Shown here piece after piece: positions 2,321 through 56,006 of a DNA stretch of 64,000 nt. A program made the position numbers and the translations under genes. Numbering within the stretch: the stretch's first letter is position 1; each line of letters begins with the position of its first letter. The notes under the pieces are model-generated. The model saw only the letters and a list, made by a program, of their open reading frames with translations, did not search any database and was not told where the DNA came from. This DNA comes from an uncultured Clostridia bacterium (GTDB lineage Bacteria > Bacillota > Clostridia > TANB77 > CAG-508), in NCBI GenBank assembly GCA_934130285.1, contig CAKOXT010000001.1, positions 435,232 to 499,231 of the forward strand, written 5' to 3'.

Positions 2321-2791
2321 TTATTCCTCTTTTATATTCTCGTCTATTTCATCATTAGTTTTAGATAATTCATCATTTAAATTTTTTATGATAAAACCAA
2401 TACTTGTTGCTGTAGATAAAATCATTATAAATATTGATATATCAAGGCCTATATCATATGAGCCAATTAAAATACTGTATATCAATTTTAATGCTGTTAT
2501 TATAAGTATTATAGTTGAAATAATTGTTATAACTGTGCTTACATTATTCTTCCATTTCTTATCTTTTCCGGTTTGAAACCAATCGGCTACTACTTGTATT
2601 AGTATTATCATAATGTTCACCATAATACTTGGAATAAAAATATATGTTCTATTATGAAAATTACTACATTCTATTAGAGTGCTTTCAATTGTAGTTAAAT
2701 CATATATCCAGTTTCCAAATATTATTGCTATGATAATTACTGTCAAATTAAGTAGTGTTACATAAAGTACATTTCTTGTCATTTTTTTCAT
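2321..2791 (-). CDS. Hypothetical multi-TM membrane protein (paralog of the 4157..4727 gene)
   Basis: Hydrophobic helices throughout. It shares its RBS/start context (GGGGGAGAAAAGATGAAAAAA) and an MKK..R..L N-terminus with the downstream frameshifted gene. Confidence 0.5.
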   Translation of the reverse strand: MKKMTRNVLYVTLLNLTVIIIAIIFGNWIYDLTTIESTLIECSNFHNRTYIFIPSIMVNIMIILIQVVADWFQTGKDKKWKNNVSTVITIISTIILIITALKLIYSILIGSYDIGLDISIFIMILSTATSIGFIIKNLNDELSKTNDEIDENIKEE

Positions 2792-2900
2792 CTTTTCTCC
2801 CCCTTGAACTTTTGTTTATATCATATTTTTTATTACGTGTTCTAAATAAGCGATAATAAGAAAACAGAGTGATATATATAATTATATCACTCCACAGAAT

Positions 2901-4037
2901 TTATTTTATTTCAGTTCCACCCCATTCAACAGCTACAAATCCTGTTCTAGTAGGTGTTTCTAATTGTTGTTCTGTAATGTCAATAGGAGTTTCTAATCCT
3001 TTATATGTCATTAGTACTCTTATTATTGTATCTGGATTTGGATTTATTTCCAAAGGCATATTTTTATTGATTTCATCTAAAGTCGCAAATCTTATGTAGT
3101 TATATTTATTAGCTTCTAACTTTGGTAACCAATATATTATAAATTCTTCGGCTTCTCTTTCTGTTAACCCCAAAATGGCCAATTTTTCTTCCAAAAATGT
3201 AGATGCATCACTTCCTTTTACTATAAATCCATCGTTTTCTACTTTAAAATTTAGTAAATTTTCGCTTTCATAATATAATGAATATAAATTTTTATTTGTT
3301 GATAAATCTGTTAAAGTTCCATCTTTTTTAGCTAATACATTCCAACCATCTAAATATTTTGGATATGAAGTTGTTATATTATCTTTGTATTGTAATTTAA
3401 CAGAAACTTCTGTGTCTTCTTTTGGATATAAATATATAATTGGCTTATATGTTGTTCCATAGTCATCTATGTTATTGACTTTTTTTGTATTGATATTAAA
3501 TTTTGCATAAGTTATATTTTTGTCCAATGTTATAAATGTAAATTTTACTGTTGGAGCCAAATCACCTCCATATGAATAACTAGTAAGAGTAATATTTATA
3601 TTGGCTTCTGTCCCATTTAAGGTTACATTATCTATTGTATACTGATTGTTGGATGATGATTGATCATGAGCTTCTATTGCCAAAGTGTGATTTTTAAAAT
3701 AATCCTTATCAAAATAATTTAAAACATCTTCATTATCAATCGTAATCGTTTCAAATTGTTTAACATATTTTTCTAATTCTCCATATGACGTAACAAAAGT
3801 ATTTTCTATGCAATCTGAACTTCCACTATAATAACCTGTCTTTGTTGTATATTCAATTTCATTACCTTTTATTTTATTTTTTGAATTAGTATAAATAGTA
3901 GTACTATCTCCATTTGTGTAAGATGATATTCTAGTTTTATTAAAGCAATATATTACTATTCCTATAACAACTAAAATAGCGATTATTAGAATTATAGTTG
4001 TTTTTAAACTAATTTTTATTTGTTTCTTTTTCTCCAT
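2901..4037 (-). CDS. Hypothetical N-terminally membrane-anchored extracytoplasmic protein (378 aa)
   Basis: A single N-terminal TM (IILIIAILVVIGIVIY) followed by an Asn/Thr/Tyr-rich soluble domain. No family recognised. Confidence 0.45.
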   Translation of the reverse strand: MEKKKQIKISLKTTIILIIAILVVIGIVIYCFNKTRISSYTNGDSTTIYTNSKNKIKGNEIEYTTKTGYYSGSSDCIENTFVTSYGELEKYVKQFETITIDNEDVLNYFDKDYFKNHTLAIEAHDQSSSNNQYTIDNVTLNGTEANINITLTSYSYGGDLAPTVKFTFITLDKNITYAKFNINTKKVNNIDDYGTTYKPIIYLYPKEDTEVSVKLQYKDNITTSYPKYLDGWNVLAKKDGTLTDLSTNKNLYSLYYESENLLNFKVENDGFIVKGSDASTFLEEKLAILGLTEREAEEFIIYWLPKLEANKYNYIRFATLDEINKNMPLEINPNPDTIIRVLMTYKGLETPIDITEQQLETPTRTGFVAVEWGGTEIK

Positions 4038-4156
4038 TTTTCTTCTCCTTTGTATTTGAATAATATTATAATCTGAATTTATAATACCATTTTGAATATT
4101 ATAATTGCAATATTTTGTAATACTTAAATTATTATTTTTTGTAGGTTCGTGAAAAT

Positions 4157-4727
4157 TTAAAGATTTTCTTCTTTATCATCAGTATCTATAACTTTTTCAG
4201 TACAGGTTAGCCCTTTTATGAAGTTAAATATAAATAAAATCAAATTTATTGTAGCAATTGTGAATGAAAGCCCACAAAATACATATTCTGCTTTGTTGGT
4301 TTTTATACTTTCTTCAGCTAAATCTGCCCATACATCCTCTACTATATCGCTTGAAATTATTATATCGTTTTTTAGCTTTTGCTTTTCCCATATTAAGTTC
4401 GATATGTTATCAAATTCAATTCTTATAAACGAAATTATGGCAATACACATTGCTAATATGCAAAGTACATTTTTTACTTTGGATTCTGAACCATTTTTTA
4501 GTAACCTTGCTATTATTAGAAAGAACACAATACTAAATGTATTTAAGATTAAGTTGACTAAATACTCCAAGCTATCCCATCCGACTACCATCACTTAATA
4601 ATTTTTTGCTTATGAAGGTTGTTATTATTTGGTTTTTAATGTACATAATTAATATTAGTGCCACTATATTTAATAATGCTATAATAAGCATATTTCTTAT
4701 ACTTTTTTTCATCTTTTCTCCCCCTTT
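4157..4727 (-). pseudogene. Membrane protein paralog of 2321..2791, apparently split by a frameshift (47-aa N-terminal ORF plus 145-aa ORF in another frame)
   Basis: A small ORF MKKSIRNMLIIALLNIVALILIMYIKNQ... starts at 4727 with the same GGGGGAGAAAAG RBS as the paralog and stops at about 4578. The 145-aa ORF 4157..4594 continues in a different frame and resembles the paralog (NWIYDLTTIESTLI vs GWDSLEYLVNLIL). Confidence 0.35.
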
Positions 4728-4817
4728 ATTCTTTGCTCACATTATAACATATATAGAATATTTTTTTGAACATTTTTATTATATAAAAACCATGTGTGTT
4801 AAATATGTGATAAGAAC

Positions 4818-4935
4818 AAATCAAAGATTTTTTCATTAAATTTGTTCGTGTGCGAAAATTTATGAAATAAATTTTCTGTGCAGTGTAGTTTTATATATTA
4901 GGAAAGTTTCATAACTTTCCTAATATATAAAAAAA
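4818..4935. repeat. 118-bp intergenic repeat, copy A (about 99% identical to copy B at 55658..55775)
   Basis: aaatcaaagattttttcaTtaaatttgttcgtgtgcgaaaatttatgaaataaattttctgtgcagtgtagttttatatattaggaaagtttcataactttcctaatatataaaaaa. It contains the small hairpin ttcg-tgtg-cgaa and a 17-bp hairpin tatatattaggaaagtt/aactttcctaatatata. Confidence 0.6.
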
Positions 4936-4986
4936 TCCTAGAGTAGTTTGAATATTATATTTCTCTCTACTCTAGGATTTTATTTA
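4935..4986 (-). terminator. Bidirectional rho-independent terminator downstream of tRNA-Leu
   Basis: Stem atcctagagtag / ctactctaggat with T-runs on both sides. Confidence 0.5.
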
Positions 4987-4988
4987 TA

Positions 4989-5071
4989 TGGTACCGATGG
5001 TGGGACTCGAACCCACATGGTTTCCCGCATGATTTTGAGTCATGTGCGTCTGCCAATTCCGCCACATCGGC
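4989..5071 (-). tRNA. tRNA-Leu (anticodon CAA), class II tRNA with long variable arm
   Basis: The reverse complement reads GCCGATGTGGCGGAATTGGCAGACGCACATGACTCAAAATCATG...GGGTTCGAGTCCCACCATCGGTACCA. The acceptor stem GCCGATG/CATCGGT pairs, the T-loop is GGTTCGAGTCC, and the anticodon loop is CT-CAA-AA. Confidence 0.8.
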
Positions 5072-53660: not shown

Positions 53661-55505
53661 ATGTGCGGTTTTTGTGGAATTGTAAATTATGAGAAAAATA
53701 TTTCAAATGATTATCCAATTATTCGAAATATGACAAATACTCTTTCTTCTCGTGGGCCTGATGAAGATGGTTTGTATTTTGATACTAATGTTAATTTTGG
53801 TCATAAAAGATTAATTGTTATTGATGCTGAAAATGGTAGACAACCAATGAGTTTCAATTTTCAAGATAATATCTACACAATTGTATATAATGGTCAAATT
53901 TATAACACAGATGAACTGAGGAAAAAATTATTAAAAGAGGGGTTTTCTTTTAAAGGTCATTCTGATACTGAAATTTTATTAAAATCTTATATTCATTTTG
54001 GTTATGATGTTGTTAAAAATCTTAATGGGATTTTTTCTTTTGCTATATGGGATTCTAAAAAAAGGGAACTATTCATGGCTCGTGATCATTTTGGAATTAA
54101 GCCTTTCTTTTACACTTTTAAAAATAATAATTTTATTTTTGGTTCAGAAATAAAAGCTTTGTTAGAACATCCAGAAATCTCTGCTAATGTTGATGCTGAT
54201 GGAATTTGTGAACTTTTTGGAATAGGTCCTGCGCACACACCTGGTCTTACTCCATTTAAAAATATTTTCGAATTGAAACCTGGATATTATGCTGTTTTTG
54301 ATGTTAATGGTTTTAAAATGGATCAATATTTTAAATTAGTTTCTGCTCCTCACACAGATAATTTTAGTGAAACATGCGAAAAAATCAATTTTTATTTAAA
54401 TGATTCTATTAATAAACAACTCGTTTCTGATGTACCTCTTGGTATGATGCTGTCTGGTGGATTAGACTCTAGTATTATTACAGCTTATGCTAGTCATAAT
54501 TTTAAAGATTGCCCTGAAAAATTCAGAACATTTTCTGTTGATTATTTGGATAATGACATTAATTTTAAGAAAAATGATTTCCAACCAAATTCGGATAATG
54601 AATTTATTGACATTATGGTAAAACATTTTAATTGTAACCATTCTCGCATCATTTTAGATACTCCTGAATTAGCTAAATCTCTATTAAATTCTATGGTTGC
54701 ACGTGATATGCCTGGAATGGCTGATGTGGACTCTTCTTTTTATTTGTTCTGTAAAGAAATTAAAAAGGATGTTAGTGTTGTTTTATCTGGCGAGTGTTCT
54801 GACGAAATTTTTGCTGGTTATCCATGGTTTTTCAGAGAAGACGCATTGAGCAGTAACACATTTCCTTGGTCTATTGCTATTTCTGAAAGACAAAAATTAT
54901 TAAATCCTTCTTTGGCTACTAAAATTGATTTAAAAGAATATGTTGATTGTCGATATAATCAAGCTCTAAATCAAATTGATTTTATAGAATCTGATTCTGC
55001 CGATACTACTGAAAAGCGAAAAATTTCTTATTTAACATTAAATTGGTGGATGCAAACATTATTAGATAGATCTGATAGAATGTCTATGGCTTCTGGACTA
55101 GAGGTTAGAGTACCTTTTTGCGATTATAGATTGGTTCAATACATGTGGAATGTTCCATGGGAAATGAAAGCTCTAGATGGCAGAGAAAAAGGTCTGCTTA
55201 GATATGTAGTTAAAGATTTATTGCCAAAAGAAATTGTAGAAAGGAAAAAAAGTCCATATCCTAAAACATTCAATCCGACTTATTTGCGAGCTGTTAAATC
55301 TATGTTACAAAATATCCTTAATAATCCTAATGCACCTATTAAACAAGTATTAAATGAAAACTATATTAGAGAAATATTAGAAACTAATGGCAGCGCTTTT
55401 TCTAGGCCATGGTTTGGTCAATTAATGACAGGTCCTCAACTCATTGCTTATTTGTGTCAAGTAAACATGTGGCTTGAAAGATATCATCCTAATATAGAAA
55501 TATAA
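53661..55505 (+). CDS. asnB: Asparagine synthase (glutamine-hydrolysing)
   Basis: Starts MCGFCGI (Ntn Cys2). It has a class II glutamine amidotransferase domain and an AsnB synthetase domain (SGGLDSS). Size 614 aa. Confidence 0.85.
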   Translation: MCGFCGIVNYEKNISNDYPIIRNMTNTLSSRGPDEDGLYFDTNVNFGHKRLIVIDAENGRQPMSFNFQDNIYTIVYNGQIYNTDELRKKLLKEGFSFKGHSDTEILLKSYIHFGYDVVKNLNGIFSFAIWDSKKRELFMARDHFGIKPFFYTFKNNNFIFGSEIKALLEHPEISANVDADGICELFGIGPAHTPGLTPFKNIFELKPGYYAVFDVNGFKMDQYFKLVSAPHTDNFSETCEKINFYLNDSINKQLVSDVPLGMMLSGGLDSSIITAYASHNFKDCPEKFRTFSVDYLDNDINFKKNDFQPNSDNEFIDIMVKHFNCNHSRIILDTPELAKSLLNSMVARDMPGMADVDSSFYLFCKEIKKDVSVVLSGECSDEIFAGYPWFFREDALSSNTFPWSIAISERQKLLNPSLATKIDLKEYVDCRYNQALNQIDFIESDSADTTEKRKISYLTLNWWMQTLLDRSDRMSMASGLEVRVPFCDYRLVQYMWNVPWEMKALDGREKGLLRYVVKDLLPKEIVERKKSPYPKTFNPTYLRAVKSMLQNILNNPNAPIKQVLNENYIREILETNGSAFSRPWFGQLMTGPQLIAYLCQVNMWLERYHPNIEI

Positions 55506-55657
55506 TTCATACGAATATTCAAATTTTAAACAAATTAAACTTTAGTAGAAATAATATTTGATTTTTATAATATCATTTATGCAATTTATAATTAGATACG
55601 TTTCTAAAAATCAAATATTATTCCAATAAATCTTCTGCCGCATAGAAGAAATCCGAA

Positions 55658-55775
55658 AAAATCAAAGATTTTTTCAGTAAATTTGTTCGTGTGCGAAAAT
55701 TTATGAAATAAATTTTCTGTGCAGTGTAGTTTTATATATTAGGAAAGTTTCATAACTTTCCTAATATATAAAAAA
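55658..55775. repeat. 118-bp intergenic repeat, copy B (one mismatch relative to copy A at 4818..4935)
   Basis: Same sequence as copy A except T to G at the position ...ttttttcaGtaaatttg. It is immediately followed by a distinct terminator hairpin. Confidence 0.6.
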
Positions 55776-55808
55776 CGGCGTAATTATAAATAATCTACGC
55801 CGTTTTTA
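55775..55808 (+). terminator. Rho-independent (bidirectional) terminator
   Basis: acggcgta-attataaataatc-tacgccgt followed by ttttt. Confidence 0.5.
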
Positions 55809-56006
55809 TTATTTAATTATTACTTTTTCTATTAATTCTATTATCTTATCAATTGGTAAATATATTATTAAAAAACTTAATAGTTCAAATATTGTTGCTA
55901 GTAATATTGCCCATATATCTATATCATTTTTTCTAGATATCACAATACTCATTGCTAATGCTGTTACACAAATTATTCCTATTAATTTTAATATAAACAT
56001 CTCCAT
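55809..56006 (-). CDS. Hypothetical small two-TM membrane protein (65 aa)
   Basis: Hydrophobic ORF at the end of the sortase-containing gene string. Weak support. Confidence 0.3.
   Translation of the reverse strand: MEMFILKLIGIICVTALAMSIVISRKNDIDIWAILLATIFELLSFLIIYLPIDKIIELIEKVIIK

Follow-up and report, generated by a model that had tools for sequence, protein, structure and literature searches.

A candidate family of low-copy three-hairpin repeats next to intrinsic terminators in uncultured gut Clostridia

A 64-kb stretch of DNA from an uncultured Clostridia bacterium, referred to here as the window, contains the same short non-coding sequence twice. This raises the question of what kind of unit is repeated in this way: a small RNA gene, a cis-acting module of the host, a recombination or attachment site, or mobile DNA. 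A preliminary description, made from the letters of the window alone, had left the choice between a small RNA gene present in two copies and a recently mobile miniature element. Our analysis favors the view that the two sequences, copies A and B, belong to a previously undescribed family of low-copy repeats, which would be non-autonomous mobile DNA inserting at the feet of terminators. We assign this reading a probability of roughly 0.6.

The repeated unit and its setting in the window

Alignment, a repeat finder and an nhmmer profile built from the family all returned exactly two copies in the 64-kb window, both on the plus strand and 50,841 bp apart (Table 1). The repeat finder matched positions 4814-4934 to positions 55655-55775 with 98% identity. 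A stretch of 112 nt (4823-4934 versus 55664-55775) contains a single mismatch, a T at position 4836 in copy A and a G at position 55677 in copy B, the latter being the nucleotide of the family consensus. A match of this length with one mismatch makes a chance origin impossible. The left boundary of the unit was set at AGAACAAATC by alignment to about 130 relatives. Compared with the consensus, copy A lacks 10 nt of the first hairpin, HP1 (TGAAAAAATC), which were lost between AAATC repeats, and the left part of copy B carries two substitutions. The near-identity of the copies, as described before, was borne out over the 112 nt, but they do not differ by a single base overall, because the left end adds the 10-nt indel and the two substitutions. 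Furthermore, the unit extends further to the left than had been proposed, and the two proposed coordinate pairs were off by one base in register. Copy B was found in all contigs of the same species (L001-L005).

The window has a uniform GC content of about 28%, and nearly all of its genes are located on the minus strand. The 50.8 kb between the copies harbor argS, pfk, the spoIIIA operon, holA, murB, pnp, clpX, clpP, tig, tsf, rpsB and tsaD as well as bipA and a gene for a class II aaRS; mutS and miaB are found past copy B. When about 45 window proteins were annotated with Pfam, none proved to be an integrase, a transposase or a phage protein. The interval consists of housekeeping core genes and is not an island. 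On the side facing away from tRNA-Leu, copy A is accompanied by four small ORFs without Pfam matches.

Table 1. Coordinates of the two copies, their hairpins and the adjoining host features in the window.
Feature	Positions	Strand	Description
Copy A	4813-4935	+	123 nt: HP1, HP2, linker, HP3, A-run
HP1 of copy A	4814-4847	+	Outer stem GAACAAAT/ATTTGTTC around a degraded inner hairpin (fold)
HP2 of copy A	4849-4882	+	Conserved core; 15-bp imperfect hairpin with G.U, U.G, bulged U and GAA loop
HP3 of copy A	4889-4932	+	Perfect palindrome TTTTATATATTAGGAAAGTT tcat AACTTTCCTAATATATAAAA (T/A extension counted)
Host bidirectional terminator of tRNA-Leu	4932-4981	-	-21.2 kcal/mol; its minus-strand T-run is the A-run of copy A
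tRNA-Leu(CAA)	4989-5071	-	Transcribed toward the HP3 end of copy A
asnB	53661-55505	+	Upstream of copy B
Copy B	55644-55775	+	132 nt; HP1 complete
HP2 of copy B	55690-55723	+	Identical to HP2 of copy A
HP3 of copy B	55730-55773	+	Loop TCAT at 55750-55753, ATGA in strains L002/L003 (T/A extension counted)
Host bidirectional terminator of the 65-aa ORF	55770-55807	-	Also downstream of asnB; orthologue in L143/L145 without the element
65-aa ORF	55809-56006	-	Its terminator adjoins copy B

Each copy is predicted to fold into three hairpins, and comparison of the folds with those of shuffled sequences gave z-scores of -12.2, -12.2 and -9.9. Across the family, the unit comprises 110-175 bp, is AT-rich and has a modular organization. 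A variable HP1 is followed by the imperfect hairpin HP2, which is conserved in sequence, and by HP3, a fast-evolving perfect palindrome that ends in an A-run. HP1 occurs in a short form, in a long form with about 46 extra nucleotides between ATTTTCAG repeats, in a form with GCGGAC...GTCCGC and in deleted forms. HP2 is almost invariant in sequence among subfamilies differing in HP1 and HP3. For copy A, RNAfold and the family alignment both favor the structure GUGCGAAAAUUUAU gaa AUAAAUUUUC u GUGCA, a 15-bp stem with a bulged U, instead of the tetraloop hairpin ttcg-tgtg-cgaa that had been proposed for this region. Members of the family retain the bulged U, a G.U pair (38/40) and a second pair that is U.G (11/40) or C.G. 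In the distant member L156 the upper stem of HP2 is kept by compensatory changes (AAATTTAT/ATAAATTT to AAAATTGC/GCAATTTT).

HP3 is the least conserved module and varies freely, yet it remains palindromic. Its duplex consists of 17-21 bp with TTTT/AAAA on its flanks, and in the window it corresponds to the 17-bp perfect hairpin of the preliminary description. Double compensatory changes were observed at six pairs, for example ATTAGG/CCTAAT versus ACTAGG/CCTAGT or AATAGG/CCTATT. As template switching in DNA palindromes can yield compensatory changes without selection, such covariation argues only weakly for function. The tetranucleotide preceding HP3 varies (GTAG, GTAA, GTTA and others). The unit contains no ORF, and a promoter scan of copy A gave no promoter-like site inside it. 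A mini-ORF in the HP2 loop (ATG-AAA-TAA) was discarded for lack of conservation (L154, L090, L156 and the flipped copies).

Distribution, recent gain and decay of the family

Two scans with different queries were used to find further members. An exact scan for the HP3 core (TTAGGAAAGTT-N4-AACTTTCCTAA) in one genome per species gave 39 loci. Thirty-four of these reside in 11 low-GC MAGs labelled uncultured Clostridia or Clostridium, such as 'Clostridium sp. 28_17' and UMGS1423, with 2-6 loci per MAG, and nearly all of the Clostridia matches display the full architecture. The other five loci are from Bacteroidota and share the HP3 core alone. Metagenome contigs were scanned with a 30-mer from HP2, a query that is free of HP3 bias, and 97 stretches were recovered, all of them from human gut. 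Searches of viral contigs, phage records and plasmids by blastn and exact scans gave nothing or chance matches. At the gathering thresholds of Rfam 15 no family matched the element, and tRNA was the only match obtained in the window. When the limit was relaxed to E<=10, only generic hairpins such as miRNA precursors appeared; cow-rumen-4 reached 21-24 bits against a threshold of 48.5.

Copy numbers are low, about 2-8 per genome, and the occupied sites differ among species. A 778-kb contig of the window's species (OJKW01000002.1) contains only copies A and B as exact HP2 copies. A third copy, which follows a T-box, apparently comes from the same species. As far as sampled, the family is confined to a clade of low-GC, spore-forming, uncultured Clostridia of the human gut.

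In a sister species, neither window site carries the element. At the B locus of the sister (L143/L145; AsnB 92%), the order bipA, 614-aa ORF, asnB, 65-aa ORF, 284-aa ORF and sortase is the same as in the window. The orthologous terminator on the asnB side is kept and copy B is absent without a trace, the gap measuring 120 nt versus 303 nt in the window. About 50 kb away on the same contig (L152; ArgS 93%), the sister has an identical tRNA-Leu and no copy A; downstream of the tRNA are a terminator that differs from that of the window and a single gene of 190 aa. The whole interval of about 50 kb thus lies on one contig of the sister with neither repeat present. Other species' loci syntenic with the window provided no usable empty site. 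On this comparison, both window copies are recent additions in the window's lineage, and this recent gain accounts for their near-identity. Neither a larger duplicated segment nor a restriction of the sequence to the two copies was found. Together with the dozens of distinct sites in several species, the empty sister sites support the earlier suggestion of a recently mobile miniature element.

The loops of all three hairpins occur in both orientations across the family. In HP3, TCAT and ATGA are both found at locus B within the window's own species. In HP2, GAA and TTC occupy one identical site (L026 and L040), and HP1 has either AAA or TTT. These flips, which are frequent, show template switching within the palindromes and provide direct evidence for extrusion or template switching in vivo. 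Moreover, copies at various stages of decay are common. A deletion of 157 bp between GAAATAA (GAATAA-type) repeats has affected the copy B locus in L004. Internal deletions are present in L034, L035 and L044, HP3 is missing from L073 and L134, and L010, L032 and L039 are remnants consisting of HP3 only.

Association with host terminators and its possible origin

Each window copy is directly followed by a GC hairpin with a T-run, as had been noted before. These terminators, however, are owned by the genes on the opposite strand and not by the element, as the terminator next to copy B is present in the sister species without the element; their T-runs may be part of either the element or the host. 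The T-tract of this terminator reads TTTTTT in the window and TTTATTCAT at the empty sister site.

This arrangement was also found at most other sites. Copies were co-oriented, and the 60 nt past the A-run were folded on the opposite strand. In 30 of 36 non-redundant copies, inspected by eye (approx. 80%), a GC hairpin followed by T5-8 ended exactly at the element boundary. The mean folding energy of the terminator-side flanks was -15.2 kcal/mol versus -4.9 kcal/mol for the left flanks. A strict automated test detected a terminator at 53-65% of the sites (22/34 for copies ascertained by HP3, 27/51 for those ascertained by HP2), compared with 22 of 3000 random positions (0.7%) and none of 12 left flanks. 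Read on the opposite strand, the order is gene, hairpin, T-run and element. At about 85% of sites the right-flank gene is directed toward the element; the gene on the left flank points in either direction. Left flanks are unrelated to each other, and they often contain a stop codon or a divergent gene's RBS within about 30 nt of the left end. Between 20 and 45% of the copies are without an adjoining terminator, and a few are positioned directly upstream of a plus-strand gene (L055, L049). The orientation of copies relative to GC skew (71:18) only mirrors the leading-strand bias of genes and is uninformative on mechanism.

The terminators belong to diverse owners: protein genes, tRNA-Leu, tRNA-Met, tRNA-Thr, a skipping-rope sRNA and a T-box attenuator. 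The recurring landmark is any intrinsic terminator. The tRNA next to copy A, which had been put forward as a classic integration landmark, does not serve as one in the att sense, being neither overlapped by the element nor close to an integrase. At three loci (L069, L141 and L159) a T-box is followed by its terminator, the element, about 150 nt and then a ybaK-like gene with ileS. For an element between a T-box attenuator and its gene, selection for a 3'-end function is hard to invoke, whereas insertion at a hairpin followed by Ts is easy to envisage. The tRNA-Met, skipping-rope and T-box sites are occupied in several species, which would speak for slow turnover, for vertical inheritance or even for a function at these sites.

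According to the reading that we prefer, the unit would be non-autonomous mobile DNA that is copied in trans by a putative enzyme, which probably recognizes HP2 through its conserved bulge and wobble pairs. Insertion would be aimed at a hairpin followed by a T-run, in a single orientation and most plausibly on single-stranded DNA, a target logic that would equal that of group IIC introns. After insertion, the element would be mostly a passenger that decays by slippage deletions and inversions of its palindrome loops. It would supply or extend the T-tract of the terminator on one strand and would add three stable hairpins to transcripts entering from the other side, for example to the 3' UTR of asnB.

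No transposase, integrase or reverse transcriptase was found beside any copy. Clustering of all flanking ORFs yielded no recurrent mobility gene; the largest cluster was a paralogous surface-protein family. Likewise, none of the loci retrieved had its two ends separated by a coding region, as in a master element or parent IS. Terminal inverted repeats are absent, the ends AGAACAAATC... and ...CCTAATATATAAAAAA not being complementary. At about 60 sites no direct repeat indicative of a target-site duplication was seen between left and right flanks, and at the empty sister sites divergence (B) or rearrangement (A) prevents the junctions from being placed to the base. In a more specific version, which we put forward tentatively, the family might constitute a terminator-homing element, a kind undescribed for small non-autonomous repeats. 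A hairpin-recognizing enzyme would bind HP2 and insert the unit at the foot of any terminator, on single-stranded DNA and in one orientation. As a variant, HP2 could represent a structured RNA motif of a new type that acts together with a partner in trans.

Further ideas were discarded. A sequence of 85 bp that appears to extend copy A to the left and is also present in L043 was considered as a mobile promoter cassette; L069 and L141, however, carry the same T-box copy with a different left flank, and L043 is accordingly taken to join the left flank of copy A to the right flank of another copy, as a recombinant or a chimera. Readings as LexA box, integron attC or retron were rejected by eye because the motifs do not fit.

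The small RNA explanation holds that the copies are plus-strand small RNA genes or 3'-UTR modules, in which HP1, HP2 and HP3 end at the bidirectional terminator and HP2 is a core that binds a protein or another RNA. A very stable fold (z about -12) is in line with this view, and so is the position of plus-strand genes, which end within 30 nt on either side of the left end at about 40% of the sites, the element then being their 3' UTR. Most of the adjoining terminators are bidirectional, so that a plus-strand RNA would terminate. Moreover, the G.U and U.G pairs in the lower stem of HP2 exist on the plus strand only and turn into A.C mismatches on the other strand, and the sequence of HP2 is conserved across subfamilies, with compensatory changes preserving it in L156. 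The explanation keeps some weight because the HP2 wobbles fit the plus strand alone and HP2 is conserved in sequence. As a general explanation, however, a small RNA gene, present twice in the window as originally proposed, appears unlikely. There is no conserved promoter; the unrelated left flanks frequently contain the RBS and start codon of a divergent gene. Flips to the complement affect the loops of all three hairpins, many copies are internally deleted or 5'-truncated, and the T-box copy has no plus-strand terminator after the element. Furthermore, the element matches no Rfam family, including in the Rfam check that had been suggested for the window, and its presence or absence differs between sister species.

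Viewed from the opposite strand, the copies could be cis modules of the host that reinforce or insulate terminators and/or act as outward promoters or 5' stabilizers, spread by recombination and maintained by selection. We regard this as rather improbable for the family as a whole. The position exactly after terminators and the T-tract of terminator B, which is better than that of the empty sister site, are compatible with such modules. At some loci (L016, L042, L037 and L027) the RBS of the next gene follows 10-30 nt past the left end, leaving no space for a separate promoter, and the long form contains a match to CTGAAA-17-TATGAT facing the next gene (read by eye), whereas the short forms are without such a promoter-like match. 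The T-box site is occupied in two species, with YbaK proteins that are 84% identical, although the placement between T-box and gene is hard to square with an insulator or terminator role. About half of the copies lie between convergent genes, where no gene follows for them to act on. A copy number that is low and variable, the decay products (L004, L034, L035, L044, L073 and L134) and the loop flips are at odds with strong constraint. A cis-regulatory role on the other strand may apply at some sites; it leaves the copies between convergent genes unexplained.

A third explanation focuses on HP3, with or without the linker, as a lox- or dif-like recombinase site with the arms ACTT(T)CCTA(T/G)AATATA, the copies being substrates of a tyrosine recombinase that drives rearrangements. 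HP3 indeed has perfect inverted arms of 15-17 bp around a short asymmetric center, and the arm resembles the XerC half of Firmicute dif. An XerD-like half is absent, though, the spacer, with 3-4 nt, could accommodate a crossover region only if stem bases were included, and a match to the degenerate XerC consensus could arise by chance in AT-rich DNA. Several contigs join the flanks of different copies (L076, L043 and L058/L054/L068), but short-read assemblers produce flank-swapped contigs at repeats of 130 bp. With HP3 being the least conserved module in sequence, we consider a recombinase site very improbable. Finally, the idea that the copies are the attL and attR repeats of a 50.8-kb prophage, ICE or island beside tRNA-Leu, which could draw on the spacing of the direct repeats, on the proximity of one of them to a tRNA 3' end and on contig L076, in which the left flank of A runs into the right flank of B as in a deletion product, is rejected in view of the housekeeping gene content, the uniform GC, the lack of any integrase or phage gene, the same interval of about 50 kb in the sister without either repeat, the occurrence of the repeat at dozens of unrelated loci with no overlap with the tRNA, and the nature of L076 as a 4.5-kb metagenome contig and possible assembly chimera.

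Significance and relation to known repeat families

Uncultured Clostridia with small genomes are common inhabitants of the human gut, but small interspersed repeats have hardly been studied in them. As its sites differ between sister species, the family described here provides a clean marker of recent genome change. It is also a likely source of contig mis-joins in metagenome assemblies. Moreover, the element modifies terminators, 3' UTRs and at least one T-box leader. The oriented association with terminators at zero distance points to structure-directed insertion, and identification of the enzyme would add a further case to the few mobile elements known to read DNA hairpins.

With regard to target choice, group IIC introns would be the closest parallel. 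As a rule they reside immediately 3' of an intrinsic terminator motif, consisting of an inverted repeat and a run of Ts, or of other inverted repeats, co-oriented with the terminated transcript (PMC1702495), and the present element likewise sits directly after an intrinsic terminator in a co-oriented manner. It differs from them in being 10-15 times smaller and in having no GUGYG 5' end and no RT ORF; searches for group II ribozyme domains gave no match to Intron_gpII or group-II-D1D4 even at E<=10.

Strict MITEs such as Correia, ERIC and bcr1 are small non-autonomous repeats with stable secondary structure that affect neighboring transcripts (PMC10969869, PMC2229807). The present element resembles them in being small, non-coding, multi-copy and polymorphic for presence and absence. 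In contrast to MITEs, it has no TIR, no TSD was seen and no parent IS was found in the flanks. Like the present element, PATEs, which are derived from IS200/IS605, have no TIR; they are also without a TSD and depend on hairpins recognized on one strand. IS200/IS605 ends, however, carry similar subterminal hairpins, whereas HP1 and HP3 of the present unit are unrelated. In addition, one end of the element is flanked by a T-run and the other by variable sequence, and beyond the T-run no conserved tetranucleotide target was found.

REP, BIME and REPIN sequences are extragenic palindromes mobilized by RAYT (Y1 HUH) transposases; REPs are GC-rich, 20-40 nt in length, present in hundreds of copies and marked by a conserved 5' tetranucleotide of the GTAG type (PMC1525189, PMC3184786). 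The location downstream of genes and the lack of TIR are common to them and the present family, and comparable too are their lack of TSD, their imperfect hairpins that are probably read as single-stranded DNA and their largely vertical transmission. The present units, by comparison, are AT-rich, 110-175 nt long and limited to about 2-8 copies per genome, with a variable tetranucleotide ahead of HP3. The flanks retrieved contained no RAYT gene. Because the element has no TIR and no visible TSD, in contrast to MITEs, and lacks the hallmarks of REPs, we file it as a new family of small structured interspersed repeats, one with an unusually strict association with terminators.

By our comparison, the small interspersed repeats of pneumococci, above all SPRITE, would be closest in kind, and REP/REPIN would also be close. 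SPRITE of S. pneumoniae is AT-rich with an 18-bp duplex, AAAA/TTTT ends, no detectable TSD and no known transposase, and it is strongly enriched between convergent genes and near the 3' ends of CDS (PMC3049150). BOX elements are built of modules, the middle one being variable, and one BOX is located with T-box leaders (PMC3049150). Like SPRITE, BOX and RUP, the present repeats reside in a Firmicute host, measure less than 200 bp, are non-coding and AT-rich (about 28% GC), occur in tens of copies or fewer, turn over slowly and have no identified transposase. The likeness to SPRITE is one of architecture and distribution only: AT-rich sequence, a long duplex, A/T-run ends and a location next to CDS 3' ends. 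Unlike SPRITE, the present element consists of three hairpins with a conserved imperfect one in the center, has a lower copy number and is found in a different class, the Clostridia. Furthermore, it is not itself a terminator mimic but abuts a host terminator at zero distance and in a fixed orientation.

Relatives and neighbours of the element

Behind the same T-box terminator, a relative with an 84% identical YbaK (locus L156) carries a superfamily member that has diverged strongly. Its left and right hairpins (HP1 and HP3) differ, and the central hairpin (HP2) has been retained via compensatory changes. A second, partial copy is arranged in tandem, beginning directly after the HP1 foot of the first. 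Because of this diverged member, the element family is broader than exact-word scans show.

In 'Clostridium sp. 28_17' (L022), a tandem pair of skipping-rope RNAs is located immediately upstream of an element copy, and the skipping-rope site also holds the element in two other MAGs (L029 and L030). Copies are often flanked by a large paralogous family, proteins of 300-420 aa with a pilin-like N-terminus and a C-terminus which, judged by eye, resembles the formylglycine-generating-enzyme fold. These are probably just abundant surface proteins of these genomes.

At L019, one copy lies between the arms of a perfect 34-bp inverted repeat (GTGAACCAATGGGGACGTTGTTAAATTGGTTGAA ... TTCAACCAATTTAACAACGTCCCCATTGGTTCAC), which suggests that the copy inserted into the loop region of a further long palindrome. 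A terminator type, GGGATTG-AAGACCCGTCCCC-CAATCCC, recurs across different loci in the flank on the HP3 side (right flanks of L007, L020, L028, L065 and L100), and large-looped hairpins of a similar type, GGGATT...AATCCC, were found at L026, L036 and L041. They may represent a second family of small repeats, one that acts as a source of terminators.

The HP3 arm ACTT(T)CCTA(T/G)AATATA resembles the half of Firmicute dif sites that binds XerC. It is not followed by an XerD-like half, and the likeness may be due to chance in AT-rich DNA.

Coordinates of the element-associated features
Feature	Locus	Position	Remark
Diverged superfamily member	L156	1200-1500	
HP3 arm (examples)	window	4913-4929	also L124, L047
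Skipping-rope RNA 1	L022	5023-5105	RF02924, 56.6 bits
Skipping-rope RNA 2	L022	5171-5252	RF02924, 65.4 bits
300-420-aa family	L016	2108-3044	
300-420-aa family	L029	369-1275	
300-420-aa family	L036	1180-2374	plus 13 other loci
Copy bracketed by inverted repeat	L019	4990-5200	
Islet	window	2321-4988	
Islet	L152	8977-9141	
Islet	L154	6866-10500	
79-nt direct repeat	window	2747-2825, 4668-4746	gene starts 2791 and 4712 (-)
Flank-swapped contig	L076		whole contig, 4.5 kb
Flank-swapped contig	L043	1986-2203	
Flank-swapped contigs	L058, L054, L068		left flanks
HP3 loop	window, copy B	55750-55753	
HP3 loop	L002/L003	5090-5093	same species
Further loop inversions	L036, L132, L050		

The variable islet beyond tRNA-Leu(CAA)

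The DNA downstream of tRNA-Leu(CAA) forms an islet whose contents differ among the window, its sister species (L152) and a third relative (L154). In the window it comprises the element and four small ORFs (46, 145, 378 and 156 aa), for which a Pfam search gave no matches. The sister species harbors a single 190-aa gene, and the third relative HTH-type and other small genes, with a subfamily-2 element 2.9 kb away. All three genomes come back together at a GIY-YIG gene or close to it, or else diverge further. Within the window islet, each unit of a direct repeat (75% identity) spans the RBS and the initial codons of a small membrane-protein gene; the two units are paralogous gene starts.

Possible recombination between copies, and loop inversion

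In some contigs from metagenomes, the left and right flanks of the element come from different copies. The L076 junction combines the left flank of copy A with the right flank of copy B, the product expected from a 50.8-kb deletion. Such contigs reflect either real inter-copy recombination or assembly chimeras at the ~130-bp repeat.

Comparison of loci revealed that orthologous sites differ by reverse-complement inversion of the hairpin loops. The HP3 loop reads TCAT or ATGA inside one species, the HP2 loop GAA or TTC at one site in two MAGs (L026 versus L040), and the HP1 loop exists in both orientations, AAA and TTT. The inversions look like recurrent intra-palindrome template switching, and switching of a similar kind has been described for chloroplast hairpins.
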